Sequence record: PZ379547.1
Length of the DNA stretch: 38,987 nucleotides
Strand: one strand, 5' to 3'
Source of the DNA: a phage
The translations under genes were made by a program, and so were the position numbers. Position 1 is the first letter of the stretch. Each line of letters starts with the position of its first letter. Below, piece after piece: positions 1,504-36,676 of the stretch. The notes under the pieces are model-generated. The model saw nothing but the letters and a program-made list of their open reading frames with translations, was not told the origin of the DNA and ran no database searches.

Positions 1504-1548
1504 ACTACAGGGTCTTTGAGTCTACATCTGAAGGCCCTGACTGATAGT
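1504..1548 (+). promoter_or_regulatory. Predicted RNase III-type processing hairpin (early mRNA, site A)
   Basis: actacagggtc ... ggccctgactgatagt form an imperfect stem with an internal bulge; same element recurs before the next early genes. Confidence 0.5.
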
Positions 1549-1571
1549 CACTAACTTAAAGGATGGACACT

Positions 1572-1817
1572 ATGAAACACTTAAGCACAATCACTAATAG
1601 CAATGAAGTATTCGTGAACACTAAAGGCTATGCGTGGATTCAGCTTAAAGAGATGACAGGAGCGCGTCACCGTGTGGTAGTGCGCAAGGTATCAAGCAAG
1701 CAGTTCAGCAACTACAGCGTCGATACTGTGCGTATAGACAACGAGACATACCTGATAGACTCGCAGATAACCGTGAGTCCTACAGTGGGCGTCTCAGCTC
1801 CTTATTTCGCTAACTGA
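1572..1817 (+). CDS. Hypothetical early protein (about 81 aa)
   Basis: ORF in six-frame track (1563..1817); second ATG at 1572 has better SD spacing (aagga 1559-1563); no recognisable motif. Confidence 0.55.
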   Translation: MKHLSTITNSNEVFVNTKGYAWIQLKEMTGARHRVVVRKVSSKQFSNYSVDTVRIDNETYLIDSQITVSPTVGVSAPYFAN

Positions 1818-1826
1818 GAGTGATTA

Positions 1827-1865
1827 ACTACAGGTCGTTAGACTGATAGCGGCCTGACTGATAGT
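1827..1865 (+). promoter_or_regulatory. Predicted RNase III-type processing hairpin (site B)
   Basis: actacaggtc ... ggcctgactgatagt; same architecture as site A. Confidence 0.5.
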
Positions 1866-1900
1866 CACTAACACATAATTAACTTTGAGAGGATATAACT

Positions 1901-2407
1901 ATGGAACGTAATGCTAACGCATACTATGAGCTGCTGGCTGCAACCGTTGAGGCATTTATCGAGCGTATTCAGTACGACCACCTGACTCAAGATGACGACT
2001 ACAGCGATGCGCTGCATGAGGTCGTAGACGGTCAGGTTCCTCACTATTACCACGAGATTTTTACGGTGATGGCTGCTGATGGTATAGACAACGAGTTCGA
2101 AGACTCTGGGATGATACCTGAAACCAAGGACGTAACGCGTATCCTACAAGCTCGCATCTATGAGGCACTTTATAACGACGTGTCTAATAGCTTGGATGTA
2201 GTCTGGTTTGAGGATGAAGAGGCAGACGAAGAGGATGAATATTGGGTAGTTGACGCTAAAACAGGCGCAATAATTGTGCAAGCTGTAGCTCTTGAGGTCG
2301 CTACTGCATGTGCCAAGGTTAACTATGCGGCAGGTCGCCACCTGAAGGTGGAAGACATCAATGATAACGTAGTGTTCGACCCTGCGGCTGAGGACTGCGA
2401 GCGATGA
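1901..2407 (+). CDS. ocr: Ocr-like DNA-mimic anti-restriction protein (T7 gene 0.3 homolog) with C-terminal extension, 168 aa
   Basis: [43 protein letters not shown] aligns with recalled T7 Ocr ([43 protein letters not shown]); acidic stretch; GAGAGGA SD 8 nt upstream of ATG. Confidence 0.85.
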
Positions 2408-2589
2408 GCAAGATATACGCAATATACCATGTCGTGCCTAACTCATGGGGAGATAACCACATCATGCAGGAGCCTTGTTATTATGACGAGGATGTGGCAA
2501 AACAGGCACTAGCGGAAGCCCAAGCGGTAGCCAAAGACCCTTGGTCTGGCGTGTACGAGGTCTGCATGGAGGTTATACAAGTTGTCTAA
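2404..2589 (+). CDS. Hypothetical early protein (61 aa)
   Basis: ATGA start/stop overlap with the ocr-like gene; ORF in track; no recognisable motif. Confidence 0.45.
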
Positions 2590-2736
2590 AACTTATGGCC
2601 TCTGCCAGCACCACGTCACTATCGCCCGGCTTATGGTCAAGACCGGGCAGTTAGACCACGATTGGGCTATGCGTCTCTTGAAAGTGGTCTACAGGAGACG
2701 CAAGCGTATGCACGACAGTTTACACGCTAAGTGACA

Positions 2737-2775
2737 GACTACAGGTCATCAATGCTGGTGGCCTGACTGATAGTC
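2737..2775 (+). promoter_or_regulatory. Predicted RNase III-type processing hairpin (site C)
   Basis: gactacaggtcatc ... ggtggcctgactgatagtc; inner stem AGGUCAU/GUGGCCU with G-U pairs. Confidence 0.5.
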
Positions 2776-2797
2776 ATTAACAACTGAGAGGGAAGAT

Positions 2798-3025
2798 ATG
2801 AACACAATCACTGGTGCCATAACCAAAGGTTTTCGAGCAATTTTCGGTGAAACGCAAGAAGTATGCACCAATCATAAATTCGTACTTTCTTGCGTAGCAG
2901 GTGACGAGTTTGACGGGTTCGATAAACTGGTGGTTTGCGACCATTGCGGACAAGAGGCTATCCAACACTCAAACGGTAAATTTGAATTAATAGACGATAG
3001 CCTTACAGAAGGAGACGGCGAGTAA
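2798..3025 (+). CDS. Hypothetical early protein with four Cys (possible zinc ribbon), 75 aa
   Basis: ORF with GAGAGGGA SD; Cys at C-x8-C ... C-x2-C (CTNHKFVLSC ... CDHC). Confidence 0.55.
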   Translation: MNTITGAITKGFRAIFGETQEVCTNHKFVLSCVAGDEFDGFDKLVVCDHCGQEAIQHSNGKFELIDDSLTEGDGE

Positions 3026-3099
3026 CCTAAATAAACAGGAGAGAACCAAATCATAGCTTGACCATAACACTGACGTGATGGTACTGAGTGATAGACGAG

Positions 3100-3123
3100 A
3101 GGTCATCGACTGATAGGTGGCCT
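3100..3123 (+). promoter_or_regulatory. Predicted RNase III-type hairpin (site D)
   Basis: AGGUCAU (3100-3106) pairs with GUGGCCU (3117-3123) via G-U wobbles. Confidence 0.4.
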
Positions 3124-3157
3124 CAAAGATTACCACTTACATTGATAGGAGTTAACT

Positions 3158-3262
3158 ATGAGCACTGCAATCATCTGGACTATCTCAGGCTTCGTAGCGT
3201 GGGGAATGTTTACTCTAGTCTGCAAACTACCGGTCCTTACTCAACTGTTATGGGGCTTATGA
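3158..3262 (+). CDS. Small hydrophobic peptide (34 aa), candidate early membrane protein
   Basis: ATG 3158 with AGGAG 6 nt upstream; MSTAIIWTISGFVAWGMFTLVCKLPVLTQLLWGL; stop TGA 3260-3262 overlaps next ATG (ATGA). Confidence 0.45.
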   Translation: MSTAIIWTISGFVAWGMFTLVCKLPVLTQLLWGL

Positions 3263-3462
3263 CTATGAGTATCGCACTATTGATAGCCATAGGCTATGGA
3301 CTTATCGCCTACGTGCTGGTGAGAGACATCAACAAAGCGCGTAAAGTCTACAAATTCAAATATGTACGTCTGGGTAGCTGGACTGTACGTCAACCTAACG
3401 GACGATTCATGCGCAACTTAGCGAACGTCTGGGATATAGCAACTCTTGGGAGCAAACTGTAA
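3259..3462 (+). CDS. Small membrane protein (67 aa; one predicted TM helix)
   Basis: ATG 3259 coupled to upstream stop; MTMSIALLIAIGYGLIAYVLV hydrophobic segment; the track ORF 3088..3462 starts at GTG inside hairpin D, so the shorter start is preferred. Confidence 0.45.
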   Translation: MTMSIALLIAIGYGLIAYVLVRDINKARKVYKFKYVRLGSWTVRQPNGRFMRNLANVWDIATLGSKL

Positions 3463-3788
3463 TGAACAAGTCATACGGGATTAATCTGGTACACTCTATG
3501 GACGCAGAAATGAACATGTTAAGCCTACTGGCTACCGGGTATCGTCACGGAACGTCAAGTCACACCGCACGTCAACAGCAGGAGCGGGACCGTGTACTAC
3601 AGGCGCGACTCCGGGCAGAGGGCCATAAGTCCGAACTGATGTGTCTGGCGTATGGTGGACGACCAATCACCGACGATGGTAAACTTTTAGTCTCAGGCTG
3701 GAAGGCGATAGACCAACGGTCAACCATCAAGCACACGACCAAAGGTGACTTCAGTCATCTCCACGCTAACCCGCTGATATGCAAGTAA
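3462..3788 (+). CDS. Hypothetical early protein (108 aa)
   Basis: ORF in track; ATG overlaps upstream TAA (TAATG); last gene before the RNA polymerase; not similar to the T7 0.7 kinase. Confidence 0.5.
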   Translation: MNKSYGINLVHSMDAEMNMLSLLATGYRHGTSSHTARQQQERDRVLQARLRAEGHKSELMCLAYGGRPITDDGKLLVSGWKAIDQRSTIKHTTKGDFSHLHANPLICK

Positions 3789-3793
3789 TTCTG

Positions 3794-3816
3794 ACTTAAC
3801 TATCACTATAGGACTC
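3794..3816 (+). promoter_or_regulatory. Phage RNAP promoter directly upstream of the RNA polymerase gene
   Basis: cttaactatcactataggactca matches the promoter consensus; +1 G at 3811, 75 nt before the gene 1 ATG. Confidence 0.7.
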
Positions 3817-3885
3817 AAGGTCTAAGACTCCAAGTGAAAGACCAAAGAGACTTTAAGTGAAAGACTAATAACAAGGACTTTAAGT

Positions 3886-6567
3886 ATGAGCGTCATCTCT
3901 ATTGACAAGCACGACTTCTCTGATGTGTCGAACGCCATTGAGCCGTTTAACCTGCTGGCTGACCACTACGGGCAAGACCTTGCAGTCAAACAGCTTCAGC
4001 TTGAGCATGAGGCATATACAGAAGGCGAGCGACGTTTCATCAAGAACCTTGAGCGGCAGACTGAGCGCGGGGAACTGGCAGACAATCAGGTCGCCAAGCC
4101 TTTGATGCAGACTCTGGTCCCTAAGATTGCGCAAGCCGTCAGGGAGTGGCACGAAGGCCTAGACGGGAAGCTGTCAACCTCGCGTCCTAGCGTAGCGTTC
4201 ACCATGTTGAGCACTGAAGAGAAGGCCGTAAAGGACCGCTCTATGCGCATCTCCTGTGAGTCCGCTGCGGTTATCATACTGAAGGTCGTACTCTCCAAGC
4301 TGGTCAAGCCTGAAGGGATACCGATTACACCGATGGCCTCCGCGATAGGTCGCACACTTGAGGACGAAATCCGCTTCGGTCGCATCCGTGACAAAGAGAA
4401 GGAGCACTTCAAGAAGGCGATAGCTGATAACCTGAACAAGCGAGCTGGGGCATCCTACAAGAAAGCCTACATGCAAGCGGTCGAGGCGTCCATGCTGGAG
4501 CAAGGCCAACTGGAAGATGCATGGGGTACTTGGAGTCCTACAGAGGCTGTACACGTTGGCATCAAGATGCTCGAGATTGTCATCCAGTCAACACAACTGG
4601 TCGAGCTTAAGCGGTACGGTGCTGGTAATGCAGCGGCTGACGTAGAGATGGTCCACCTGTCAGACTTCTGGGTCAAGAAGATGGCACAACGAGGATTCAG
4701 CCTTGCGGGTATCGCTCCAGTCTACCAGCCTTGCGTCGTTCCACCTAAGCCGTGGACTGGTGTCGTAGGTGGTGGGTACTGGGCCAAAGGTCGCAGACCG
4801 TTACCATTGATTCGCTTAGGGTCTAAGTCTGCGGTAGCACGTTATGAAGACGTATACATGCCTGAAGTCTATGACGCTGTGAACATCATTCAGAATACAC
4901 CTTGGAAAGTTAACAAGAAGGTATTGGACGTGGTGAACATGGTCGAGAAGCTGAACAACACGCCTATTAATGACATCCCTCAGATGGAACCGCTGAAGCC
5001 TGAGGACTATGCTGGTGAAACCGAGGAGGAACTCAAGGCATGGAAGAAGGCTGCTGCTGGTATCTATCGCCGCGAGAAGGCCAGACAGTCACGCAGATTG
5101 TCCATGAGTTTCATCGTATCACAGGCCAACAAGTTCTCACAGTTTAAGGCCATCTGGTTCCCGTACAACATGGATTGGCGAGGTCGTGTCTACGCTGTCC
5201 CGATGTTCAACCCTCAGGGTAACGACATGCAGAAGGGGCTCCTGACTCTGGCAGTCGGCAAGCCTATCGGGGCGGATGGTTTCAAATGGCTTAAAGTCCA
5301 CGGTGCAAACTGTGCGGGTGTCGATAAAGTCACCTTCGATGAGCGCATCAAGTGGGTGGAAGACAACCACGAAAACATCATGGCTGCTGCTAAGGCACCG
5401 ATGGATAGTATTGAGTGGTGGGGCAAGTTAGACTCTCCGTTCTGTTTCCTCGCGTTCTGCTTCGAGTATGCTGGCGTAATGCACCACGGCCTGTCTTACT
5501 CCTGCTCGCTGCCGATAGCGTTCGATGGGTCCTGCTCTGGTATTCAGCACTTCAGTGCGATGCTTCGTGACCACATCGGTGGACATGCAGTAAACCTGAC
5601 GCCATCCGGCATGGTACAAGACATCTACCGCATTGTGTCTGACCGCATTGAGGAGGAGCTTAAAGTCCTTCTGATTAACGGTACTGACAACGAGATGGTC
5701 ACTCACGAGGATAAGAAAACTGGTGAGATTACCGAACGTATCAAGCTGGGGACACGAGAGCTGGCCCGTCAGTGGCTGACATACGGTATGTCACGCAAGG
5801 TCACTAAGCGTTCAGTCATGACTCTGGCATACGGGTCGAAAGAGTACGGATTCGCAGACCAAGTTTACGAGGACATCGTGATGCCAGCGATTGACTCAGG
5901 GTCTGGCGCTATGTTCACTGAACCAAGCCAAGCGTCTCGCTTCATGGCAAAGATGATTTGGGAAGCTGTGAGTGTGACAGTAGTTGCTGCGGTTGACGCG
6001 ATGAAGTGGCTTCAAGGTGCTGCCAAGCTGCTGGCTGCTGAGGTGAAGGACAAGAAGACTGGGGAAATCCTGAAGCCTTGCCTTCCGGTACACTGGGTCA
6101 CACCTGATGGGTTCCCGGTCTGGCAGGAATACCGCAAGAAGGATAGCACTCGTCTGAACCTGATGTTCTTAGGGTCCTTCAACCTTCAACCTACGGTCAA
6201 CAAAGGTACGAAGAAAGAGCTGGACAAGCACAAGCAGGAGTCAGGCATTAGCCCTAACTTCGTCCACTCACAAGATGGTAGCCACCTGCGGAAGACTGTA
6301 GTCCACACTCACCGCAAGTATGGCGTGATGTCATTCGCAGTGATTCACGATAGCTTCGGGACCATCCCTGCTGACGCTGAGTATCTGTTCCGTGGTGTCC
6401 GTGAGACGATGGTCGAGACATACCGCGATAACGATGTGCTGCTTGACTTCTACGAGCAGTTTGAATACCAGCTTCATGAAAGCCAGCGCGACAAGTTGCC
6501 TGAGCTTCCGAAGAAAGGTAAACTGAATATCGAAGACATCTTGTCTTCAGACTTTGCATTCGCTTAA
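3886..6567 (+). CDS. gp1: Single-subunit DNA-directed RNA polymerase (T7 gene 1 homolog), 893 aa
   Basis: DGSCSGIQHFSAMLRD, RSVMTLAYGSKEYGF, VIHDSFGTIPADA and C-terminal ...SDFAFA match recalled T7 RNAP motifs. Confidence 0.97.
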   Translation: MSVISIDKHDFSDVSNAIEPFNLLADHYGQDLAVKQLQLEHEAYTEGERRFIKNLERQTERGELADNQVAKPLMQTLVPKIAQAVREWHEGLDGKLSTSRPSVAFTMLSTEEKAVKDRSMRISCESAAVIILKVVLSKLVKPEGIPITPMASAIGRTLEDEIRFGRIRDKEKEHFKKAIADNLNKRAGASYKKAYMQAVEASMLEQGQLEDAWGTWSPTEAVHVGIKMLEIVIQSTQLVELKRYGAGNAAADVEMVHLSDFWVKKMAQRGFSLAGIAPVYQPCVVPPKPWTGVVGGGYWAKGRRPLPLIRLGSKSAVARYEDVYMPEVYDAVNIIQNTPWKVNKKVLDVVNMVEKLNNTPINDIPQMEPLKPEDYAGETEEELKAWKKAAAGIYRREKARQSRRLSMSFIVSQANKFSQFKAIWFPYNMDWRGRVYAVPMFNPQGNDMQKGLLTLAVGKPIGADGFKWLKVHGANCAGVDKVTFDERIKWVEDNHENIMAAAKAPMDSIEWWGKLDSPFCFLAFCFEYAGVMHHGLSYSCSLPIAFDGSCSGIQHFSAMLRDHIGGHAVNLTPSGMVQDIYRIVSDRIEEELKVLLINGTDNEMVTHEDKKTGEITERIKLGTRELARQWLTYGMSRKVTKRSVMTLAYGSKEYGFADQVYEDIVMPAIDSGSGAMFTEPSQASRFMAKMIWEAVSVTVVAAVDAMKWLQGAAKLLAAEVKDKKTGEILKPCLPVHWVTPDGFPVWQEYRKKDSTRLNLMFLGSFNLQPTVNKGTKKELDKHKQESGISPNFVHSQDGSHLRKTVVHTHRKYGVMSFAVIHDSFGTIPADAEYLFRGVRETMVETYRDNDVLLDFYEQFEYQLHESQRDKLPELPKKGKLNIEDILSSDFAFA

Positions 6568-6582
6568 CAGGAGGAGAAGTAT

Positions 6583-6813
6583 ATGTCAATGAAACTTGTA
6601 GCACACAACAGGACATACAACGATGGGTCGGGACGTTGCCATGTAGAGCTGACTTATAGGGATTTAGTCATTCTCCGAGACAGATTACAAGCGGGTGTGA
6701 CTGGGTGGATTCAACCTAACGAGTACAACCTTATAGCTTCGATTGATGAAGTGCTTAACGCGTGGATGGAAGACGAGCGCACTCAGTATCCGTCATTCCC
6801 TATAATTAGATAA
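6583..6813 (+). CDS. Hypothetical protein (76 aa)
   Basis: ORF with strong SD (caggaggagaagtatATG); no recognisable motif. Confidence 0.55.
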   Translation: MSMKLVAHNRTYNDGSGRCHVELTYRDLVILRDRLQAGVTGWIQPNEYNLIASIDEVLNAWMEDERTQYPSFPIIR

Positions 6814-6823
6814 GGAGAGAGTT

Positions 6824-7039
6824 ATGAAATTTGCACACAAGCATGCTGGAGTTAAGGGCGGGACTCAAATCGTGACCGTAACAGAACACAACGGCAATGG
6901 TCTGGTGAAGACCACGGTCATTCCTACCGAAATGTCAAAGCAGCTTAACGTCCCATTCAAGACCCTCGTCTATCTTGTGGAATCCAGCCACGAGAAATAC
7001 CTGAAAGACGCAGTGACCAAGCTGGAGCAGACCAAATGA
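6824..7039 (+). CDS. Hypothetical protein (71 aa)
   Basis: ORF with strong SD (taaggagagagttATG); no recognisable motif. Confidence 0.55.
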   Translation: MKFAHKHAGVKGGTQIVTVTEHNGNGLVKTTVIPTEMSKQLNVPFKTLVYLVESSHEKYLKDAVTKLEQTK

Positions 7040-7113
7040 CAGACCTACAGTTACTGGCCTTGTGGCTGGGAGCACTCGCAGTATTCACTTTAATCCAAAG
7101 CAGAAGAGGTTAA

Positions 7114-7136
7114 CCTAAACTATCACTATAGGATTA
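7114..7136 (+). promoter_or_regulatory. Phage RNAP promoter (T7 phi1.1-like position)
   Basis: cctaaactatcactataggatta; +1 G at 7131. Confidence 0.85.
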
Positions 7137-7141
7137 GACTC

Positions 7142-7168
7142 AAGGTCATGACTCAAAGTCGTGGCCTT
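7142..7168 (+). promoter_or_regulatory. Predicted RNase III processing hairpin (T7 R1.1-like)
   Basis: AAGGUCAUGAC-ucaaa-GUCGUGGCCUU, 11-bp stem with G-U wobbles; preceded by the conserved agactcaagg motif. Confidence 0.6.
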
Positions 7169-7206
7169 CATGATTAACCCTAACTCATTCAATCAGGAGC
7201 TACACC

Positions 7207-7386
7207 ATGTATCAGAACACTATCAACTTCGAGCGAATCCGTGAACGTCAGCAGACTGAAGATTATATTCCGAAGGGACGCAAGCTGAACAAGACCAAGC
7301 GTGGTGGAGGTGTCAAGGGTGCTTTCCGTAACGCTGAAGGCAAAGACTCTATGGTCAACCAAGAGAAATACTTCGTAGGAGCGTAA
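7207..7386 (+). CDS. gp1.1: Gene 1.1-like small basic protein (59 aa)
   Basis: Below the track cut-off; ATG 7207 with AGGAG upstream; contains KGRKLNKTKRGGG as in recalled T7 gp1.1 (KGRKLNKTKR); stop TAA 7384-7386. Confidence 0.6.
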   Translation: MYQNTINFERIRERQQTEDYIPKGRKLNKTKRGGGVKGAFRNAEGKDSMVNQEKYFVGA

Positions 7387-7389
7387 GTC

Positions 7390-7650
7390 ATGAACCATTA
7401 CGAGCTTAAAGATTTCGCAAAGAGTCTTGGACTTGTGGTTGAGCACGACTGGTATGAGGACCTCCAGCGTAGACTTAAGGTAGAGCGAGTGTCCTTCAGG
7501 ACAGACTACAGGTACTCACCAAAGAACGGCTACGAGCGAGGGGACCTGATAGCGAGACTTGAGTTTAATGACTCAATGGGTCCAACAGAATACGCCGATG
7601 CCATCGGTCCGGCTTACAACGCACTTAAACAATTTGAACTGTGGAGATAA
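7390..7650 (+). CDS. Gene 1.2-like protein (86 aa) by position and size
   Basis: ORF directly between gene 1.1 and ligase, matching T7 order; sequence similarity not verified. Confidence 0.45.
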   Translation: MNHYELKDFAKSLGLVVEHDWYEDLQRRLKVERVSFRTDYRYSPKNGYERGDLIARLEFNDSMGPTEYADAIGPAYNALKQFELWR

Positions 7651-7654
7651 CACA

Positions 7655-8701
7655 ATGACAACTATCAAAACCAACCCGCATCGCGCTGTAGATTACTCTG
7701 AGTCAGGCGTTAAGAAAGCGCTTGAAGCTGCTGGGTCGCTGGAAGCCGAAGTGAAGTATGACGGTGTGCGGTTGAATATTCCGGTCTTCCCTACTGGTGA
7801 GACTCAATGGTTGAGCCGTGAGTCTAAACCTCTTCCAGCCTTGGAGTGGATGAACTCTGAGTTAGGTAATGCGTGGACCCAAGCTGACTGGCGATGGTTC
7901 CTGCGTCAAGCTGGCTACGAAGGCGTGGGCTTGATGATTGATGGCGAGGTAATGGTCAAAGGCGTGGACTTCAATACCTCCTCAGGTCTCATCCGAACGA
8001 AGTGGCTCAAGCCTAACAACGAGGAGTTCGCTGAATACTATTCGCCGGCGACTGGTGGAAAGAAGCTCCCGTTCTGGGGATCCCGGTCACGACTTCGGGT
8101 TGTGGTCTACGGTGTCATCGACATGACAACCATTGCTGACCCGAAAGCCGAAGGTCCTATCCATAGCGTCACACGCCTGAAGGCCGAAGCTATCGTCCCT
8201 CTCCTCCAGAAATACTTCCCGGAAATCGACTGGGTTCTGTCTGAGTCACACACGGTCTATGACCTTGAGTCGCTCAACTCCCTGTACGAACAGAAGCGTC
8301 TGGAAGGACACGAGGGTCTGGTAGTCAAGGACCCACTGGGTAAATATAAGCGTGGCAAGAAGTCAGGCATGTGGAAGATGAAGCCTGAGGAGACCATCGA
8401 CGGGACCGTGTGTGGTCTCGTGTGGGGGACTCAGGGTAAGGCTAACGAGGGCAAGGTCATCGGCTTCGAGGTTCTGCTTGAGGATGGCATGGTGGTTAAC
8501 GCCTGTGGTCTGACTGAAGAACAGAAGGCTGAGTTTACGGAAGCCTGTAACACTGATACATATATTCTCGGTGGAATCAATCCATACGAAGGCTGGCAAT
8601 GTGAAGTGCTATTCATGGAGCGGTTCCCTGATGGCTCTCTTCGTCACCCTAGCTTCAAGTGCTGGCGTGGAACGGAAGACAATCCAACCGTTAAGAGCTA
8701 A
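7655..8701 (+). CDS. gp1.3: ATP-dependent DNA ligase (T7 gene 1.3 homolog), 348 aa
   Basis: MTTIKTNP..., adenylation motif KYDGVR, MIDGEVMVKGVDFNTSSGLIRTKW, EGHEGLVVKDP, DGSLRHPSF match recalled T7 ligase; start moved from track 7559 to ATG 7655 (GGAG 10 nt upstream). Confidence 0.95.
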   Translation: MTTIKTNPHRAVDYSESGVKKALEAAGSLEAEVKYDGVRLNIPVFPTGETQWLSRESKPLPALEWMNSELGNAWTQADWRWFLRQAGYEGVGLMIDGEVMVKGVDFNTSSGLIRTKWLKPNNEEFAEYYSPATGGKKLPFWGSRSRLRVVVYGVIDMTTIADPKAEGPIHSVTRLKAEAIVPLLQKYFPEIDWVLSESHTVYDLESLNSLYEQKRLEGHEGLVVKDPLGKYKRGKKSGMWKMKPEETIDGTVCGLVWGTQGKANEGKVIGFEVLLEDGMVVNACGLTEEQKAEFTEACNTDTYILGGINPYEGWQCEVLFMERFPDGSLRHPSFKCWRGTEDNPTVKS

Positions 8702-8711
8702 CTAAATGTCA

Positions 8712-8744
8712 ACCCAGTGGTCTTCGGACTGCTGGGTTTCTTTG
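8712..8744 (+). terminator. Intrinsic terminator after ligase (T7 TE-like early terminator)
   Basis: ACCCAGUGGUC-UUCG-GACUGCUGGGU (11-bp stem, UUCG loop) followed by UUUCUUUG. Confidence 0.75.
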
Positions 8745-8765
8745 CGTCTAGGCCACCAGCTAGAC

Positions 8766-8788
8766 CCTAAGCTATCACTATAGGACAA
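8766..8788 (+). promoter_or_regulatory. Phage RNAP promoter, variant (G at -12)
   Basis: cctaagctatcactataggacaa; +1 G at 8783. Confidence 0.65.
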
Positions 8789-8812
8789 CCATCAACAACC
8801 TAAGGAGACTCT

Positions 8813-9073
8813 ATGTCTAATAACTTAATGTTCAACCGTTATTCCAATACCTTCCACCTGTCCAACAACCCGTTCGCTTGCATTAAGCGCAACGAGAAGC
8901 TGGGCTACTTCGGGAAGGCCGTGAAGTTATCACCTACAGTCTTCGCTCTGATTACTCCGGGTAAAGCTGAAGAGGCTCGCCAGAAGCGTGAGACCAACGT
9001 ACCTGTGGTCTACACTAAGTGGCCTCGCGTTCGTCTGTTTATTGAGTTCGTGAAGGAGGTGATCAATGGTTAA
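8813..9073 (+). CDS. Hypothetical protein (86 aa; T7 gene 1.4-1.6 region)
   Basis: ORF with SD taaggagact; no recognisable motif. Confidence 0.55.
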   Translation: MSNNLMFNRYSNTFHLSNNPFACIKRNEKLGYFGKAVKLSPTVFALITPGKAEEARQKRETNVPVVYTKWPRVRLFIEFVKEVING

Positions 9074-9509
9074 GGTTGGGGATACAGTTAACTATGTTGG
9101 ACCAGTTGGAGCGCACGCGGGACGCTCCTGTGGCAAGGTGATAGTGGTTAAGAATGAGCATGTAGCTGTTGTTAAGTGGCCCCGTTTATCTGAACCACTC
9201 ACTCACTCAATTAGTTCCTTAAGTATTACCAAGCAGGCGCAGTCCGAGCCGACAACCATAGGTCAGGAAGATAGCGTCCGTAAGCCATCTCACTATCAGG
9301 TCTTTGACGGCGTGGAGTCCATTGAGATTATCGCTCGGTCCATGACTGTCAGTGAGTTCCGTGGCTTCTGCATGGGTAACGTCCTTAAGTATCGACTCCG
9401 GGCTGGTAAGAAGTCAGAGCTGGCGACTATGGAGAAGGACCTGAACAAAGCAGCCTTCTATCAGGAGCTGTTCGACCTACATAAAGGTAAGTGCTATGCT
9501 TCCGAGTGA
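9066..9509 (+). CDS. DUF3310-like phage protein (147 aa), positional equivalent of T7 gene 1.7
   Basis: KPSHYQ ... GNVLKYRLRAGKK ... DLNKAAFY resembles my recollection of the DUF3310 signature; AAGGAGG SD 6 nt upstream. Confidence 0.55.
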   Translation: MVKVGDTVNYVGPVGAHAGRSCGKVIVVKNEHVAVVKWPRLSEPLTHSISSLSITKQAQSEPTTIGQEDSVRKPSHYQVFDGVESIEIIARSMTVSEFRGFCMGNVLKYRLRAGKKSELATMEKDLNKAAFYQELFDLHKGKCYASE

Positions 9510-9591
9510 GTGGTGCGAGCGTAAATTTGAGGAGACAGGTAACGTCGATTACCTTCAGCTCTACAACTTATGGAAGGAGCGTGGTCTATGA
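9496..9591 (+). CDS. Small ORF (31 aa), T7 gene 1.8-like position
   Basis: ATG 9496 overlaps the end of the upstream gene; stop TGA 9589-9591 overlaps the gene 2 ATG (ATGA). Confidence 0.3.
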
Positions 9592-9746
9592 CTGACGTAG
9601 AGAAGAAATACATCGTGGAGCTTGAGGGTCTCGTTCAGTCCTTCGAGGTTCCGGTGTACGCAAAGTCTCTTGAAGAGGCTACCATGAAGTCCCAAGAGTA
9701 TGAGGACGCTGGGTTTATGGTCGGACGGATTCGTCCTGAGACCTAA
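9588..9746 (+). CDS. gp2: Host RNA polymerase inhibitor Gp2 (52 aa)
   Basis: Below the track cut-off; [14 protein letters not shown]...[10 protein letters not shown] matches recalled T7 Gp2 (SFEVPIYAETLDEA...AGFEVTRVRP); AAGGAG SD. Confidence 0.8.
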
Positions 9747-9764
9747 ACTATCACTGTAGGACAG
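9742..9764 (+). promoter_or_regulatory. Phage RNAP promoter, variant (G at -3), upstream of SSB gene
   Basis: cctaaactatcactgtaggacag; overlaps gene 2 stop. Confidence 0.65.
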
Positions 9765-9804
9765 ACGTCCAGTTAGTAACTTTTAAATTAGGAGATTTAC
9801 ACCG

Positions 9805-12052: not shown

Positions 12053-12076
12053 TAAACTCTAAGGGAGAACAACCCA

Positions 12077-12292: not shown

Positions 12293-12310
12293 ACTATCAC
12301 CTTAGGGATG
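12288..12310 (+). promoter_or_regulatory. Phage RNAP promoter, variant (CTTA instead of TATA), upstream of primase-helicase
   Basis: cctaaactatcaccttagggatg; weaker match to consensus. Confidence 0.5.
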
Positions 12311-12357
12311 GGACCATGAGTCCTGTCCCTTTGTTCGCATTTGTGACTAAGGAGTGA

Positions 12358-14061
<1,704 letters not shown>

Positions 14062-14112
14062 ATGTCAATGCCCTGAGTGCGACTGGAAGTCACCATACGG
14101 AGGACACCATTA

Positions 14113-14277
14113 GTGTTTAAGAAACTTAAAGCTCGCTACCATCGGTTCATGTACAAATGGTGGAGTGATGAAGCAACCTGCCTGTCCAACATTCTTGGAG
14201 ACCAAAGGTTCGACTCTAAGGCATGGAAGAGAGCTAACCGGAAGTTTATGTATCACTTCTTGCGTACAGACTTCTAG
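14113..14277 (+). CDS. Hypothetical small protein (54 aa from GTG; T7 gene 4.3-4.7 region)
   Basis: Track ORF 14077..14277; GTG 14113 has GGAGG 9 nt upstream; start uncertain. Confidence 0.35.
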   Translation: MFKKLKARYHRFMYKWWSDEATCLSNILGDQRFDSKAWKRANRKFMYHFLRTDF

Positions 14278-14287
14278 GTCTAGACTC

Positions 14288-14312
14288 AAGGTCATTCACA
14301 TCGAGTGGCCTT
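14288..14312 (+). promoter_or_regulatory. Predicted RNase III processing hairpin (T7 R4.7-like position)
   Basis: AAGGUCAU-ucacaucga-GUGGCCUU with G-U wobbles; preceded by agactcaagg motif. Confidence 0.55.
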
Positions 14313-14340
14313 TATGATTAGACTAAACGGAGGATTAACC

Positions 14341-17871: not shown

Positions 17872-17945
17872 TCTACTGGGCCGGACTTCTGGCCCTTTAC
17901 TGCATGTACAAGTGGTTCGGGTCGAACAACCGACCTAAACACTGA
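17853..17945 (+). CDS. Possible small hydrophobic ORF (30 aa, GTG start) overlapping the end of gene 6 (T7 gene 6.3-like position)
   Basis: AGGAGG 7 nt upstream of GTG 17853; product (V/M)DTIHVIYWAGLLALYCMYKWFGSNNRPKH; speculative. Confidence 0.25.
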   Translation: MDTIHVIYWAGLLALYCMYKWFGSNNRPKH

Positions 17946-17997
17946 GTCTAACCGATAGTCATATCCTATCAATCCAACAGTCATCCATAGGTGAAAC

Positions 17998-18020
17998 ACT
18001 AAACTATCACTATAGGGACT
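17998..18020 (+). promoter_or_regulatory. Phage RNAP promoter (T7 phi6.5-like position)
   Basis: actaaactatcactatagggact; +1 G at 18015. Confidence 0.85.
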
Positions 18021-18081
18021 TTAGGACCTAAGATATGACTATAAGATAGACTTTAGTCTTAACTTAAAGAGGAGATTCAAG

Positions 18082-18354: not shown

Positions 18355-18368
18355 CTGTAGGAGGGACT

Positions 18369-18593
18369 ATGTGTTTCAGTCCAAAGATTAGCACTCCGAA
18401 GCCTTCGGTCCAAGCACCTGAACCAGCACCCCTGAGTGAGGAAGTTGCGTCAGTTGACATCGGGGCTGAATCGGATGTGGACACCAACGAGACCAAAGGT
18501 ATCAAAGACCTGAAGGTCAAGAAGGAGTCTGCAACTAAAGATAAATCGTCAGTAAGTCGCGCTATGCGAGCCTCTGGCGTCAACATGGGGTAA
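18369..18593 (+). CDS. gp6.7: Gene 6.7-like virion protein (74 aa)
   Basis: N-terminus MCFSPKI.TPK and EPAPL match my partial recollection of T7 gp6.7; SD gtaggaggg. Confidence 0.7.
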   Translation: MCFSPKISTPKPSVQAPEPAPLSEEVASVDIGAESDVDTNETKGIKDLKVKKESATKDKSSVSRAMRASGVNMG

Positions 18594-21823: not shown

Positions 21824-21824
21824 G

Positions 21825-21847
21825 ACTAAACTATCACTATAGGGAGA
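21825..21847 (+). promoter_or_regulatory. Phage RNAP promoter upstream of capsid gene (T7 phi10-like), with 5' leader hairpin
   Basis: actaaactatcactatagggaga; +1 G at 21842; leader GGGAGACC ... GGUUUCCC can pair, like the T7 phi10 leader. Confidence 0.9.
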
Positions 21848-21949
21848 CCAAGAGACAGACTCAAGGTTTCCCTATTACTTCAGTCCATACGGATTGGGCA
21901 TACAGTAAGTAATAAACTTTATCTTTCAATTGAATAGGAGAATTATCAT

Positions 21950-23262: not shown

Positions 23263-23268
23263 TTGAAA

Positions 23269-23304: not shown

Positions 23305-23319
23305 GCTTAAGGAGGGCCT

Positions 23320-24113: not shown

Positions 24114-24122
24114 GGAGGGCCT

Positions 24123-26480: not shown

Positions 26481-26487
26481 CTTATTG

Positions 26488-26537
26488 AAGGGCCTATAGA
26501 TTTACCTTAACTATCACTATAGGGACTATAGGCCCTT
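26488..26537 (+). repeat. Perfect 12-bp inverted repeat (aagggcctatag / ctataggccctt) bracketing the gene 13 promoter
   Basis: Arms at 26488-26499 and 26526-26537, read directly. Confidence 0.8.
26505..26527 (+). promoter_or_regulatory. Phage RNAP promoter (T7 phi13-like position)
   Basis: ccttaactatcactatagggact; +1 G at 26522. Confidence 0.85.
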
Positions 26538-26556
26538 AAGGTTATAAGGAGACTTT

Positions 26557-27599: not shown

Positions 27600-27610
27600 G
27601 AGGAGGACTA

Positions 27611-29893: not shown

Positions 29894-29897
29894 CATA

Positions 29898-33785: not shown

Positions 33786-33803
33786 ACTATCACTACAGGA
33801 AAC
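33781..33803 (+). promoter_or_regulatory. Phage RNAP promoter, variant (C at -2), upstream of tail fibre gene (T7 phi17-like)
   Basis: actaaactatcactacaggaaac; overlaps gp16 stop. Confidence 0.6.
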
Positions 33804-33849
33804 TGGAGGCGCTACCATAGGTCTCCGTTTAAATCACAAAGGAGGCATA

Positions 33850-36030
33850 ATGTCCACGATTACACAATTCCCTTCAGGAAACACTCAGTACAGGATAGAG
33901 TTCGACTACCTAGCCAGAACGTTTGTTGTTGTTACGCTGGTGAATAGCTCTAACCCTACCCTGAACCGTGTACTGGAAGTTGGTCGAGATTACCGATTCC
34001 TTAATCCAACGATGATTGAGATGTTGGCTGACCAATCAGGTTTCGACATCGTTCGTATTCACCGTCAGACTGGAACTGACTTAGTGGTAGACTTCAGGAA
34101 TGGCTCAGTGTTGACAGCTAGTGACCTGACCAATTCAGAGCTTCAGGCTATCCATATTGCAGAAGAAGGTCGAGACCAAACGGTTGACTTAGCGAAGGAA
34201 TATGCCGATGCTGCTGGTAGCTCTGCTGGCAATGCTAAGGATAGCGAGGACGAAGCACGCCGAATCGCTGCGAGTATCAAGGCAGCTGGTAAAATTGGCT
34301 ATATTACCAGCCGATCATTCGAGAAAGGCTTCAACGTTACAAAATGGAACGAGGTCCTGCTATGGGAAGAGGATGGTGATTATTACCGCTGGGATGGTAC
34401 GCTTCCAAAGAACGTTCCGGCTGGTTCAACTCCTGAATCATCTGGTGGTATTGGGCTGGGTGCGTGGGTTAGTGTTGGCGATGCGTCACTTAGAGCAAGC
34501 CTGTCTGATAGCGATGGCACTAAATACATAGGCAGTGGAGAAAGGACATTACTTGAGCACAACAATGATGTTTTGCACTCAAAAGACTTTCCAACACTGC
34601 AGGCAGCTATAGATGCATCTTTGCAAAAAAATGATCTACTGGTGTCTCCTGGCAATTATACTGAAAAAGTTACTATTGGAAACGCGCAGTTAAAAGGTGT
34701 TGGCGGGGCCACGGTACTAAAAACTCCGGCAGACTTTACAAACACTGTTCAGGTTAATTTAGCTACACCTCATTGGCAATTCCGCCATAGTGGTGGTTTT
34801 GCTATAGATGGTTACGGGACAACCGGGGCCGTAGGTATTAGTTTTGACCCGTCAGACCAATATTCCGGACGTCATAATTTTAGTGATGTATACATCCACA
34901 ACATCAACAAGGCCATTCAGAAGCCTTCCGGGAACATCGGCAATACTTGGAGAAATATTGGGATATCTACGTGTGATTGGGGGTATTACGCGATTAGTGG
35001 CTCAGAGATGCATTGCGGGGCCGATACCCTCTACAATATCCACTTCGATGGCATCTCCACCTATGCAGTCTATCTAGACGGCACTGTCGATAATGGCGGG
35101 GTGGGCGCATGGTGGCTTAAAGACTCCATTATTGAGGCTTCCGGAGGTGGCGGGATATACTTAAAAAGTAAATCGGGCGACTGTCCTACATCTCCATGCG
35201 GGGTATCCAATATATGGATGGAAGCGATCGCAACATCACCGGCTGTTCAGGTAGACGGCGTGCCGCAAAAACCGCGAGTTCTCAAGTTGGTAGACACAGC
35301 GATATTCTTTGCTGAGTATTCTTATCTCAACAACATCGAGCTATCCAACTCCAACTTAGTAACTTATGGTTGCCGTTTTGACAACGCTGATGGCAATCAG
35401 GATATTGTCGTGGATGCACAAAGTACCATTGTAGCCCATGACGTGTATTTAAACGGCAGTTCTGGAAAGGACGTTATTGTGGAGTCCGTAGCATCGCAAT
35501 CTGCAACGATAGCTGCCACAAACTTATCTCTGAGGGGCAACTTAACAAGGGGGAGAGTATTTAATACGCCGACAGGGAATAAATTAATGGCTATCACATT
35601 TGACTCAGGTAGCCATAATTTTTCTGGCAGCGCCACCGTTAACGGTTCGACTGTATCTGACGGACTTCACGCCGCTACATGTACCGAATTTTCATTCCCC
35701 GGAGCCGGTTTATATGAAATGGTAGCGACAAGAACAACCATTACATCCGGTAGATGGTACGTGTGGGGAGTTAACTCACGCCTACAATCTGGCTCGGCGG
35801 ATATTAGTATAACGTTAGGTATTACCATTGGTAGTGTTTACACAAAGCCGGGGGAGTGGATTAGCACTTTCGGTGTAGGAAAGGCATCTACCACTGGCAC
35901 TGTAGCGCTATACGTTTCCACAGGAGGAGGTTCGGGAGCTACGGTCAGATTCAGTGACTTTTTCATCGCTGAGTTTACGACGCAAGCTCAGGCTTTAGCT
36001 TTCGCCAATTCAAGGATGTCGTTATCATAA
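33850..36030 (+). CDS. gp17: Tail fibre/tailspike protein (T7 gene 17 homolog at N-terminus; divergent beta-helix-like C-terminal module), 726 aa
   Basis: N-terminus FDYLARTFVVVTL, DYRF, LVVDFRNGSVLTASDL, AIHIAEEGRD matches recalled T7 gp17 adaptor domain; C-terminal part is Gly/Asn/Ser-rich with repetitive short strands and is AT-richer than the rest; start moved to ATG 33850 (GGAGG upstream). Confidence 0.85.
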   Translation: MSTITQFPSGNTQYRIEFDYLARTFVVVTLVNSSNPTLNRVLEVGRDYRFLNPTMIEMLADQSGFDIVRIHRQTGTDLVVDFRNGSVLTASDLTNSELQAIHIAEEGRDQTVDLAKEYADAAGSSAGNAKDSEDEARRIAASIKAAGKIGYITSRSFEKGFNVTKWNEVLLWEEDGDYYRWDGTLPKNVPAGSTPESSGGIGLGAWVSVGDASLRASLSDSDGTKYIGSGERTLLEHNNDVLHSKDFPTLQAAIDASLQKNDLLVSPGNYTEKVTIGNAQLKGVGGATVLKTPADFTNTVQVNLATPHWQFRHSGGFAIDGYGTTGAVGISFDPSDQYSGRHNFSDVYIHNINKAIQKPSGNIGNTWRNIGISTCDWGYYAISGSEMHCGADTLYNIHFDGISTYAVYLDGTVDNGGVGAWWLKDSIIEASGGGGIYLKSKSGDCPTSPCGVSNIWMEAIATSPAVQVDGVPQKPRVLKLVDTAIFFAEYSYLNNIELSNSNLVTYGCRFDNADGNQDIVVDAQSTIVAHDVYLNGSSGKDVIVESVASQSATIAATNLSLRGNLTRGRVFNTPTGNKLMAITFDSGSHNFSGSATVNGSTVSDGLHAATCTEFSFPGAGLYEMVATRTTITSGRWYVWGVNSRLQSGSADISITLGITIGSVYTKPGEWISTFGVGKASTTGTVALYVSTGGGSGATVRFSDFFIAEFTTQAQALAFANSRMSLS

Positions 36031-36174
36031 AAACAACCTCAGCCGAATCGGGTTATTTATCATCAGAACGGTATTGAATCATCGAAGGTTGTGGAGGTAG
36101 AGGCTAACTACACGTTGACCAACGTATGATAACAACTTTGGGTCACGGACGACCCGCTTTAAACTGGAGGTTTT

Positions 36175-36369
36175 ATGATTGAGTTAGACTTCAAGAATGA
36201 GGTCCTCAAAGCCTCGCCTATCGTCGGGACCGCTGCGGCTGATGGTGCCAGTCGGTTCTTCTTTGGGCTAACGCTCAACGAATGGTTCTACGTCGCTGCT
36301 ATCGCGTACACCGTGGTGCAGATTGGCGTCCTAATTTACAAGACGATTAAGAGCGGAGGTAAGACATGA
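36175..36369 (+). CDS. gp17.5: Holin (T7 gene 17.5 homolog), 64 aa
   Basis: LDFKNEVLKASPIVGT...FFGLTLNEWFYVAAIAYTVVQIG matches recalled T7 gp17.5. Confidence 0.9.
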   Translation: MIELDFKNEVLKASPIVGTAAADGASRFFFGLTLNEWFYVAAIAYTVVQIGVLIYKTIKSGGKT

Positions 36370-36629
36370 CGCAGATGGACTTAGAGAAGTTCCTGTTAAT
36401 GCTGGACACAGAACGTGCTAGACTAATGCTGCAAGACCTGCGGGATGACTCTAAGCGTTCGCCCCAGCTCTACAACGCCATTGAGAAGCTACTGGCTCGT
36501 CACAACTTCGTGCTAAGCAAGGTGTCTGTTGACGAGAAGACGCTCGCTGATATGGAGGCCCTGAACGCAGAGTACGATAAGGTGCTCTCCGCTACGGAAG
36601 ATAATGACACTGGATATGGAGTGCAGTAA
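36366..36629 (+). CDS. gp18: Terminase small subunit (T7 gene 18 homolog), 87 aa
   Basis: LMLDTERARLMLQDL, RSPQLYNAIEKLLARHNF resemble recalled T7 gp18; ATGA overlap with holin stop. Confidence 0.85.
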   Translation: MTQMDLEKFLLMLDTERARLMLQDLRDDSKRSPQLYNAIEKLLARHNFVLSKVSVDEKTLADMEALNAEYDKVLSATEDNDTGYGVQ

Positions 36630-36649
36630 ATCTCTTAAGTGTTAGACTC

Positions 36650-36676
36650 AAGGTCATTACTGTATGTAGTGGCCTT
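36650..36676 (+). promoter_or_regulatory. Predicted RNase III processing hairpin (T7 R18.5-like)
   Basis: AAGGUCAUUAC-uguau-GUAGUGGCCUU, 11-bp stem with G-U wobbles; preceded by agactcaagg motif. Confidence 0.6.

Follow-up and report, generated by a model that had tools for sequence, protein, structure and literature searches.

Seven related hairpins between genes

Seven short segments of related sequence lie in gaps between genes on the + strand of the window (the whole 38,987-nt stretch of phage DNA in record PZ379547.1), and the question they raise is whether they are sites at which RNase III would cut the phage's transcripts, as a first-pass annotation had proposed. Sequence comparison leaves us confident that these hairpins, s1–s7, are T7-group-type RNase III processing signals of a K1F-like (Kayfunavirus) coliphage; the hairpin class is well known and is ordinary for the T7-like (K1F-type) phage group. 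Its classic examples are in T7 and T3, where the host enzyme cleaves long transcripts to give stable mRNAs. All seven were found where the annotation had placed them; for s4–s7 its coordinates took in the upper stem only, and the full elements are longer (Table 1).

In the consensus of the seven, a lower stem of 8 bp is separated by an asymmetric internal loop of 4 + 5 nt from an upper stem of about 11 bp. When each site was folded against its own shuffles, the check that the annotation itself had suggested, every one fell well below them (z –3.1 to –4.9), although s3, if folded in isolation, has a weak lower stem. There are 2–4 G·U pairs in each of the seven, and at all seven the + strand folds better than the – strand, by 2.6–12 kcal/mol. 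The core described for the family is present as AGGUCAU/GUGGCCU, with U·G wobbles, in s2–s7 and as the variant AGGGUC/GGCCCU in s1. The ACUACAGG/CCUGACUGAUAGU arms that had been assigned to all four early sites hold for s1–s3 but not for s4, which has ACGAGAGG/CCUCAAAGAUUAC, and the bulged lower stem noted in those four is real but not confined to them, since all seven sites have a lower stem and internal loop. The agactcaagg motif, thought to precede the structure, is actually inside it, running from the last part of the lower stem through the 5' loop strand into the first part of the upper stem.

Three exact copies of the 14-mer AGACTCAAGGTCAT are present in the window (at 7136, 14282 and 36644), and GGCCTGACTGATAGTCA has three copies with no more than one mismatch, the expectation being 0.12 matches at up to three mismatches. 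Over both strands of the window and with filters off, a covariance model of the seven returned exactly these sites (60–73 bits), the next best match scoring 10 bits. Rfam 15 gave no match at or above the gathering score anywhere in the whole window.

Table 1. Hairpins and transcription signals in the window; cut positions are predictions
Feature	Coordinates	Strand	Fold z	Model score (bits)	Predicted cut after	Description
s1	1496–1552	+	–4.3	60.3	U1542	First early hairpin
s2	1819–1869	+	–4.7	72.3	U1859	Positionally R0.3
s3	2730–2778	+	–3.1	68.7	U2768	Early hairpin
s4	3085–3139	+	–4.0	62.9	A3127	Early hairpin
s5	7129–7182	+	–3.8	69.2	U7171	R1.1 homologue
s6	14277–14324	+	–3.8	65.2	U14315	R4.7 homologue
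s7	36638–36689	+	–4.9	73.5	U36679	R18.5 homologue
Sigma-70-type promoter	1350–1379	+				TTGACA-18-TAGTAT; starts the early transcript with s1–s4
TE-like intrinsic terminator	8711–8745	+				GC-rich hairpin, then UUUCUUUG; after the ligase gene
R3.8-like candidate	12304–12330	+	–3.3			Simple hairpin
R6.5-like candidate	17941–18057	+	–4.4			Long interrupted duplex, about 22 bp
R13-like candidate	26488–26537	+	–3.4			Hairpin GGGCCUAUAG/CUAUAGGCCC

Genomic positions and further candidates

Sites s1–s4 lie in the host-transcribed early region, between the sigma-70-type promoter, which is homologous to a region annotated in EcoDS1 as a promoter for host RNAP, and the TE-like terminator, which is the end of the early unit and stands where TE is annotated in EcoDS1. 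The first hairpin is about 117 nt downstream of the promoter and upstream of a gene of 81 or 84 aa (1563/1572–1817); s2 is upstream of an ocr-like gene 0.3 (1901–2407; ocr-like by PHROG 2568), s3 of a 75-aa gene (2798–3025), and s4, which has a variant internal loop (ACGAG/CAAAGA) and flanks nearest those of T7 R0.5 (by alignment with T7 1424–1487), of a 34-aa ORF (3158–3262). Site s5 begins at about +1 of a phi1.1-type phage promoter (7119–7132), upstream of gene 1.1 (7207–7386), which is the layout of R1.1 in T7 and T3. Site s6 overlaps the stop codon of the ORF at 14077–14277 and lies 17 nt before the DNA polymerase ATG at 14341, the position that R4.7 has relative to gene 5 in T3, and s7 lies between gene 18 (36366–36629) and the Rz-like gene 18.5 (36740–37189). 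Sites s1–s6 are placed 26–42 nt upstream of a start codon.

The list of seven was incomplete, omitting three non-canonical candidates. The promoter at 12293 gives a transcript whose 5' end contains the R3.8-like hairpin, ahead of the primase/helicase gene, and both the position of this hairpin and its ...CCCUUUGUUCG tail are those of the annotated T3 R3.8. The R6.5-like duplex encloses the phage promoter at 18003 and can form in read-through transcripts only; it is kept in 15 Kayfunavirus loci, which offer no informative covariation, and R6.5 of T3, T7 and phiYeO3-12 also encloses phi6.5. The R13-like hairpin, upstream of gene 13, encloses the phage promoter at 26510 in the layout of T3 R13, and is kept in 24 loci, among them L174, where the arm sequences are different and the hairpin is retained.

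Known RNase III sites recovered from related phages

When a covariance model derived solely from the seven hairpins of the window was searched against T7, T3 (AJ318471) and phiYeO3-12 (NC_001271), it selected known sites in these relatives. In T3, its best eight matches were all stem_loops annotated 'RNase III recognition site', of which that record has ten (matched: R0.3, R0.5, R1, R1.1, R1.3, R4.7, R6.5 and R18.5); likewise, eight of ten annotated RNase III sites in phiYeO3-12 were recovered as top matches. Eight loci were matched in T7 (849–908, 1424–1487, 3097–3156, 5844–5903, 6403–6461, 13850–13911, 18498–18578 and 36813–36871), which we take to be, in order, R0.3, R0.5, R1, R1.1, R1.3, R4.7, R6.5 and R18.5; these names and positions are reportedly those of Dunn and Studier in 1983, and the T7 records that we examined omit RNase III features. 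There were no stray matches at E < 0.5 in any of the three genomes. The proposed correspondence of the hairpins to the T7 early sites, R1.1, R4.7 and R18.5 is supported, synteny and covariance-model matches being in agreement.

Covariation and RNase III determinants

Among the seven paralogues, compensatory changes occur at 11 of the 19 consensus pairs. For 36 distinct R18.5 orthologues, 95.6% of cells were paired (33–54% in a slide control with the partner shifted) and 15 of the 19 pairs had compensatory changes, while the hairpin family across six genomes and a set of seventy Kayfunavirus sites were each 93.4% paired, all of these percentages being inflated by the fitting of the alignments to the model. 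Across the three alignments of relatives, both sides had changed at 12–15 of the 19 pairs, and slide controls were far lower.

A G-C pair at proximal-box position 2 abolishes RNase III binding, and the minimum reactive length of the upper stem is about 11 bp (PMC1540722); the determinants of reactivity are the lack of G-C at that position, a distal-box U·G and no fewer than 11 bp above the cut (PMC1540722). We placed the hairpins on the numbering of the minimal R1.1 substrate (uR1.1) by our own alignment, the positions themselves being experimentally defined (PMC1540722). Proximal-box position 2 is invariantly A-U (7/7, 35/35 and 65/65 sequences), and the upper stems of s1–s7, at about 11 bp, are at the minimum reactive length. 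The distal-box U·G is found in six of the seven window sites, the exception being s2 with U-A. Proximal-box position 3 is C-G in s1–s3, as also in T7 R1, and G-C in s4; T7 R1.1 has A-U. Given the recovery of known sites, the conservation of pairing and the conserved RNase III base pairs, the reading of s1–s7 as early sites, R1.1, R4.7 and R18.5 is supported.

A proposed model for transcript processing

In the + strand transcript each site would fold into about two helical turns of RNA, with 4 nt on the 5' side and 5 nt on the 3' side of the internal loop. Host RNase III would bind via the proximal-box and distal-box base pairs of the upper stem and, because of the internal loop, would be expected to cut the 3' strand only, at a bond inside the loop predicted by alignment with T7 R1.1 (...GGCCUUUAU^GA...). 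A cut at that position would therefore leave a protective 3' hairpin at the end of the upstream mRNA, and the 5' end of the downstream mRNA would lie 26–42 nt before its start codon. By homology we infer cleavage, its positions and its dependence on RNase III, and effects of s1–s7 on mRNA stability and translation would be expected to follow.

Sites s1–s4 would divide the early transcript made by the host polymerase into mRNAs that are mono- or oligocistronic, whereas s5 (R1.1), s6 (R4.7) and s7 (R18.5) would process phage-polymerase transcripts. In T7, five sites are cut in the early precursor, and R1.1 is cut at a single bond (PMC4858673). The early region of the window holds no ORF of the size of the gp0.7 kinase, which makes it probable that this phage lacks the stimulation of RNase III that T7 has.

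Early hairpins at cassette junctions

In K1F-like phages the early hairpins coincide exactly with the junctions of gene cassettes that have been swapped. A cassette at about 1553–1852 is absent from EcoDS1, where a single hairpin has the left flank of s1 on one side and the right flank of s2 on the other, the crossover falling within the shared 3' arm; another, at about 2731–3083, is absent from K1F, where a single hairpin connects s4 with the left flank of s3. Neither K1F nor EcoDS1 has a copy of s3, and the gene of this second cassette (2778–3051), which begins exactly at the 3' edge of s3, has 87% nucleotide identity to Kagunavirus siphophages. Early regions are variable, with 1–4 hairpins and many flank combinations: in 23 Kayfunavirus genomes, 14 types of left flank and 15 types of right flank occur in 30 combinations around 61 early hairpins, while control points 220–300 nt away show only 1–3 combinations above the larger type count. 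Ends of homology blocks are also enriched at hairpins.

Taken furthest, these patterns would make the hairpins primarily DNA-level repeats, for recombination or at module boundaries, by which early cassettes are exchanged, with RNA processing secondary or absent. We consider this very unlikely: the late sites s5–s7 are at fixed syntenic positions common to T7 and T3, the G·U pairs and strand asymmetry point to selection on RNA, and the RNase III determinants are conserved. Moreover, the hairpins fill nearly all sizeable early intergenic gaps, and the enrichment may come simply from junctions lying between genes; the 75-aa gene, which is foreign, came without hairpins. Nor is recombination truly exclusive of processing, as RNase III sites could also act as recombination junctions. 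We tentatively suggest, while thinking it somewhat doubtful, that the early RNase III hairpins of Kayfunavirus have a second purpose as junctions of a cassette system, in which a conserved element of about 50 nt may flank interchangeable small early genes. Variable early regions would then result from homologous recombination through the hairpins or from selection for each newly gained gene to have processing sites on both sides, and the junction pattern suggests a route by which T7-like phages insert foreign early genes into a processed operon.

Two explanations that dispense with RNase III fare worse. Stable hairpins directly upstream of ribosome-binding sites, and a non-canonical 5' stem-loop in the phi10 leader (21840–21874), could suggest RNase III-independent mRNA elements, either 3' or 5' stem-loops with a stabilising effect or translational operators working through folding only, but such a role is highly improbable, explaining neither the conserved asymmetric internal loop and invariant proximal-box pairs nor the sequence kinship to RNase III targets annotated in T3 and phiYeO3-12 and established in T7. 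The hairpins are almost certainly not intrinsic terminators or attenuators between genes, despite containing GC pairs at intergenic positions, in that none of the seven is followed by a T-run, a terminator scan of 780–9000 reported none at s1–s5, expression of the genes downstream of each site requires read-through, and the true TE-like terminator differs in appearance.

Significance and comparison with known systems

RNase III hairpins of this class have been textbook knowledge since the work on T7, and for that reason the discovery is minor. The sites permit a correct transcript map for K1F-like phages, showing the limits of the mRNAs, the hairpins predicted to protect their 3' ends and their 5' UTRs. 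These phages are in use for phage therapy and engineering, and any early-region refactoring or gene insertion should keep or reuse the hairpins. The palindromes are relevant at the DNA level too, given that a T7 RNase III-site palindrome triggers the DdmABC/Lamassu defence system (PMC11707656).

The PeSL elements of T4 and the module-boundary sequences of lambdoid phages offer a comparison, limited to the cassette-junction reading. Both are short conserved intergenic stem-loop or boundary elements that flank interchangeable small early genes, as the window hairpins do, but they are unrelated to these in sequence and involve different enzymes. The window repeats differ further in having what appears, from sequence comparison, to be a well-supported role in RNA processing, the recombination role being suggested by junction positions only.

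With T7 the window shares the bipartite hairpin with its asymmetric internal loop and the frame ACUCAAGGUC...GGCCUUUAUGAUU, common by alignment to the window sites and T7 R0.5, R1.1 and R18.5, as well as the strand and the intergenic, syntenic positions of R1.1, R4.7 and R18.5; the window-built model detects the sites of both reciprocally. Of the window's four early sites three have ACUACAGG/CCUGACUGAUAGU arms, a type that T7 has only in R1. Unlike T7, the window has a phage promoter rather than a site before gene 1, no equivalent of R1.3, non-canonical equivalents of R6.5 and R13, an R4.7 equivalent that abuts gene 5 (as in T3) and no evident 0.7 kinase.

T3 and phiYeO3-12 resemble the window in having R4.7 directly before gene 5, and R13 and R6.5 that enclose promoters, as do the extra candidates described above. 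They belong to another genus (Teetrevirus), however, with other promoter sequences and an early region of three sites (R0.3, R0.5 or R0.45, and R1) plus the 0.7 kinase.

The Kayfunavirus reference records, K1F and EcoDS1, leave the hairpins unannotated, and an annotated EcoDS1 ORF (1493–1636) overlaps one of them. Orthologous hairpins are nonetheless present at six positions in K1F and five in EcoDS1 (51–74 bits), the early copies numbering three in K1F, two in EcoDS1 and four in the window.

Seven hairpins share one RNA architecture

All seven hairpin sequences reported in the first-pass annotation (s1-s7, numbered 5' to 3', with s1-s4 early and s5-s7 late) were found at their coordinates, and every site folded below its dinucleotide shuffles (z -3.1 to -4.9). 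The RNAalifold consensus of the seven, in which the U.G wobbles described earlier are present, has 19 pairs, of which 11 have both partners changed, with pairing kept, in at least one paralogue. Its shape is common to all sites: stems of ~8 bp (lower) and ~11 bp (upper) are separated by an asymmetric internal loop with 4 nt in its 5' strand and 5 nt in its 3' strand. The bulged lower stem is thus not confined to the early four, as had been proposed; the flanking arms ascribed to those four occur in s1-s3 (ACUACAGG/CCUGACUGAUAGU) but not in s4, which has ACGAGAGG/CCUCAAAGAUUAC. The agactcaagg motif noted at the late sites is indeed there, not as a separate upstream element but as the end of the lower stem, the 5' loop strand and the first upper-stem pairs. 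The coordinates originally assigned to s4-s7 spanned the upper stem only, and full extents are tabulated below.

An exact 14-mer, AGACTCAAGGTCAT, is common to the three late sites, and GGCCTGACTGATAGTCA to three early sites with at most one mismatch (expectation 0.12 matches when up to 3 mismatches are allowed). Elsewhere the 14-mer was matched with 3 mismatches only within genes or on the minus strand; these matches scored at most 10 bits by the model described next and were taken as chance. A covariance model made from the seven hairpins (model R1), run on both strands with filters off, picked exactly these seven in the window at 60-73 bits, the next best scoring 10 bits. An Rfam scan of the whole window gave zero family matches. 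All seven sites occupy intergenic gaps and are on the + strand, which at every one folds 2.6-12 kcal/mol better than the - strand; G.U pairs number 2-4 per site.

Hairpins, candidate sites and neighbouring features in the window (cuts predicted by alignment with R1.1)
Feature	Coordinates	Strand	Predicted cut after	z	Context
s1, full extent	1496-1552	+	1542		
s2, full extent	1819-1869	+	1859		
s3, full extent	2730-2778	+	2768		
s4, full extent	3085-3139	+	3127		
s5, full extent	7129-7182	+	7171		
s6, full extent	14277-14324	+	14315		
s7, full extent	36638-36689	+	36679		
R3.8-like candidate hairpin	12304-12330			-3.3	5' end of transcript from promoter 12293
R6.5-like candidate, interrupted duplex of ~22 bp	17941-18057			-4.4	encloses promoter 18003, as R6.5 does
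R13-like candidate hairpin	26488-26537			-3.4	encloses promoter 26510, as R13 does
sigma-70-type promoter	1350-1379				upstream of s1-s4
TE-like terminator	8711-8745				after ligase gene, downstream of s1-s4
phiOR-like promoter	189				right-end region 1-790
gene 19.5-like ORF	387-545				right-end region 1-790

Correspondence to known RNase III sites

Model R1 was derived from the window alone and afterwards run on other genomes. In T3 (AJ318471) its eight best matches all fell on stem_loops annotated 'RNase III recognition site', of which there are ten; the eight are R0.5, R4.7, R0.3, R1.1, R6.5, R18.5, R1 and R1.3, and 8 of the 10 annotated sites of phiYeO3-12 were likewise recovered. The T7 matches were 849-908, 1424-1487, 3097-3156, 5844-5903, 6403-6461 (weak), 13850-13911, 18498-18578 and 36813-36871; no match with E<0.5 was found elsewhere in T7, T3 or phiYeO3-12. 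These eight T7 matches contain what we take to be the cut positions of R0.3, R0.5, R1, R1.1, R1.3, R4.7, R6.5 and R18.5 (Dunn & Studier 1983). Because RNase III sites are missing from the feature lists of T7 records NC_001604 and V01146, the T7 site names follow the T7 literature together with the T3 and phiYeO3-12 annotations.

The sequences align in a single frame: lower stem, ACUCA, AGGUC..., loop, ...GGCCU, UUAUGA, lower stem. The flanks of T7 R0.5 are nearly identical to those of s4, and T7 R1 has the ACAGG/CCUGA variant found in s1-s3. Recovery of annotated sites and agreement in synteny (below) both support the earlier interpretation of the hairpins as RNase III sites, and support their placement within a very well known class of element, to which they add new orthologues and paralogues. 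Kayfunavirus reference records leave these sites unannotated, and our literature search found no paper joining 'Kayfunavirus' and 'RNase III'; any T7 specialist would expect them.

R1.1 is cut at one bond, giving 47-nt and 13-nt products (PMC4858673). These sizes fit a cut at ...GGCCUUUAU^GAUUG. The 13-nt product is also consistent with a cut at T7 nucleotide 5887, which we presume to be the R1.1 position. The cuts predicted for s1-s6 precede the next start codon by 26-42 nt. Following the T7 model of PMC4858673, we infer that s1-s4 would be cut co-transcriptionally in the early transcript of the host polymerase and s5-s7 in transcripts of the phage polymerase, the upstream RNA retaining a 3' stem-loop that would protect it from exonucleases and the downstream RNA receiving a short defined leader. 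The early region (window 1400-3886) contains no ORF matching the T7 0.7 protein kinase in size, and PHROG gave no kinase match for the early ORFs; the stimulation of RNase III by phosphorylation known from T7 is therefore probably absent from this phage.

Covariation, RNase III determinants and other readings

A survey of R18.5, the counterpart of s7, across 80 loci, each anchored on a gene 18 homologue, found 67 matches just downstream of gene 18. Among the 36 distinct sequences, standard pairs filled 95.6% of cells, both-side changes occurred in 15 of the 19 pairs and the covariation score was 0.52; moving the 3' partner by 1-3 columns left 33-54% of cells paired and scores of 0.04-0.16. A six-genome family alignment and an alignment of 70 sites from 20 further Kayfunavirus early regions were each 93.4% paired, absolute percentages that, like that for R18.5, lean towards structure since the alignments were fitted to the model. 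Despite this fitting, the compensatory changes and slide controls convincingly support the pairing.

Reactivity requires at minimum an 11-bp helix above the cut and a U.G pair in the distal box, while proximal-box position 2 must be neither G-C nor C-G for binding to occur, and internal loops limit cleavage to one strand so that a protective 3' hairpin remains (Pertzev & Nicholson, PMC1540722). The box columns were assigned through our own alignment of the window sites with R1.1. Proximal-box position 2 is A-U in all sequences (7/7 window, 35/35 family, 65/65 Kayfunavirus) and position 1 is G-C in all but one (7/7, 35/35 and 64/65, respectively); the distal-box U.G pair is present in six of the seven window sites, s2 having U-A.

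A purely DNA-level element (cruciform, origin or recombination site) would leave the G.U pairs, the strand asymmetry and these conserved determinants unexplained. A secondary DNA-level role is possible, and the palindrome of a T7 RNase III site triggers DdmABC/Lamassu defence (PMC11707656). Stabilising elements independent of RNase III would account neither for the conserved internal loop nor for homology to established sites. Terminators are excluded, as no U-run follows any of the seven and expression of the downstream genes needs read-through. From the + strand intergenic placement, the absence of T-runs, the G.U pairs and the strand asymmetry in folding, it follows that selection acts on RNA of the coding strand.

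Genomic placement

Many Kayfunavirus (K1F-like, T7-group) coliphages are 94-96% identical to the first 8 kb of the window, which has the T7 gene order (RNA polymerase at 3886-6567, ligase, primase/helicase, DNA polymerase, capsid, tail, terminase) and 11 + strand copies of the phage-polymerase promoter consensus ACTATCACTATAGG. It is a nearly complete, circularly permuted genome; relatives deposited from the physical left end begin at about window 785-793, so that window 1-790 is the right end.

Gene neighbours agree with the mapping of s5, s6 and s7 to R1.1, R4.7 and R18.5 made in the first-pass annotation. Site s5, which begins at about +1 of the phage promoter 7119-7132, has the gene at 7207 downstream of it, the layout of R1.1 in T7 and T3; s6 overlaps the stop codon of a small ORF, with the DNA polymerase start 17 nt further on, and T3 R4.7 is placed likewise before that gene; s7 separates gene 18 from the Rz-like gene 18.5. 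Since s1-s4 lie between a sigma-70-type promoter and a TE-like terminator, they belong to the host-transcribed early unit. The ocr-like gene 0.3 follows s2.

Other features were noted in passing. Directly after s4, a hydrophobic 34-aa ORF (3158-3262, MSTAIIWTISGFVAWGMFTLVCKLPVLTQLLWGL) with a good ribosome-binding site and no PHROG match may encode a small membrane peptide. The reference genome EcoDS1 (L004) has a CDS of 'unknown product' (1493-1636) whose 5' part overlaps an s4-type hairpin (1487-1550); its call or start may be wrong. A strong hairpin at 579-623 (CCUAAGGUCAGUAC...GUACUGACCUUAGC-like; the stretch 560-640 has z -3.2) comes right after the small gene 387-545, near the genome right end and ahead of the terminal region. 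Near the left end, upstream of the early promoters, ACCTACAGTC occurs in five exact copies within 97 nt (1000-1096), with related copies at 708-731; the array resembles short repeat arrays adjoining the T7 terminal repeat, and the motif resembles the ACUACAGGUC 5' arm of the early hairpins. A stable stem-loop at 21840-21874 (GGGAGACC...GGUUUCCC; z -4.4 for the stretch tested) lies at the extreme 5' end of the RNA made from the promoter that precedes the major capsid gene. It contains AGACUCAAGG, is similar to the stabilising 5' leader stem-loop of T7 phi10 and does not qualify as a canonical RNase III site; a AGACTCAAGG-like motif at 21857 within it was rejected accordingly.

Early hairpins at cassette junctions

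The early hairpins number three in K1F, two in EcoDS1 and one to four in 20 other Kayfunavirus genomes, with very variable spacers. The first EcoDS1 hairpin is s1 with its left flank, switching to the s2 right flank inside the common CCTGACTGATAGTCAC arm, and EcoDS1 therefore lacks the 84-aa gene cassette; the third K1F hairpin has the s3 left flank followed by the s4 hairpin and right flank, and K1F is therefore without s3 and the 75-aa gene. The latter (2798-3025, with CxxC-type motifs) encodes a protein 90-93% identical to that of Kagunavirus siphophages, e.g., vB_EcoS_XY1 and Bas70. Nucleotide homology (87%, window 2778-3051; counterpart 680-954 in L180 and L181) begins exactly at the s3 3' edge, stops 33 nt before s4 and takes in what remains of the ribosome-binding site of the siphophage's next gene; hairpins are absent from the siphophage. 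The gene looks horizontally acquired, and now sits between two processing hairpins.

We surveyed flanks over window 1400-3900 (loci L121-L140, L002 and L004). The 61 early hairpins of 23 genomes fell into 14 types by left flank and 15 by right flank, which were combined in 30 ways; control points 220-300 nt off had only 1-3 more combinations than the larger type count. Ends of homology blocks were enriched at hairpins (68 of the 176, vs. 13% expected), a count inflated by paralogous cross-matches and in which 'at hairpins' is confounded with 'between genes', as hairpins fill almost every sizeable early intergenic gap. As judged from these comparisons the pattern is real, early hairpins marking junctions of a mosaic of early-gene cassettes, and it is the sole part of this work slightly beyond textbook knowledge. 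The hairpins may promote recombination, or they may simply be retained or duplicated so that each early gene is bracketed by processing sites.

Comparison with the T7 and T3 site complement

T7 and T3 have an R1-type hairpin before the RNA polymerase gene (gene 1), whereas we looked for one there in the window and found none; a AGACTCAAGG-like motif at 3811 had no significant structure (z -0.3 to -1.2). The gap right before the gene (window 3799-3885) is filled by a consensus phage-polymerase promoter, which suggests possible positive feedback; EcoDS1 is annotated with a phage promoter at the same place. No equivalent of R1.3 was found by model R1, and genes 1.2 and 1.3 abut.

Three further elements, unlisted in the first-pass annotation, are located at the positions that non-canonical RNase III sites have in the T3 and phiYeO3-12 annotations. 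The R3.8-like hairpin has a ...CCCUUUGUUCG tail in common with R3.8 of T3 and T7. The R6.5-like element is conserved (15 loci nearly identical, too invariant for covariation), and the R13-like hairpin is retained in 24 related loci, with arm sequences differing in one. With these three counted, as candidates only, the phage would have ten sites, as do T7 and T3.
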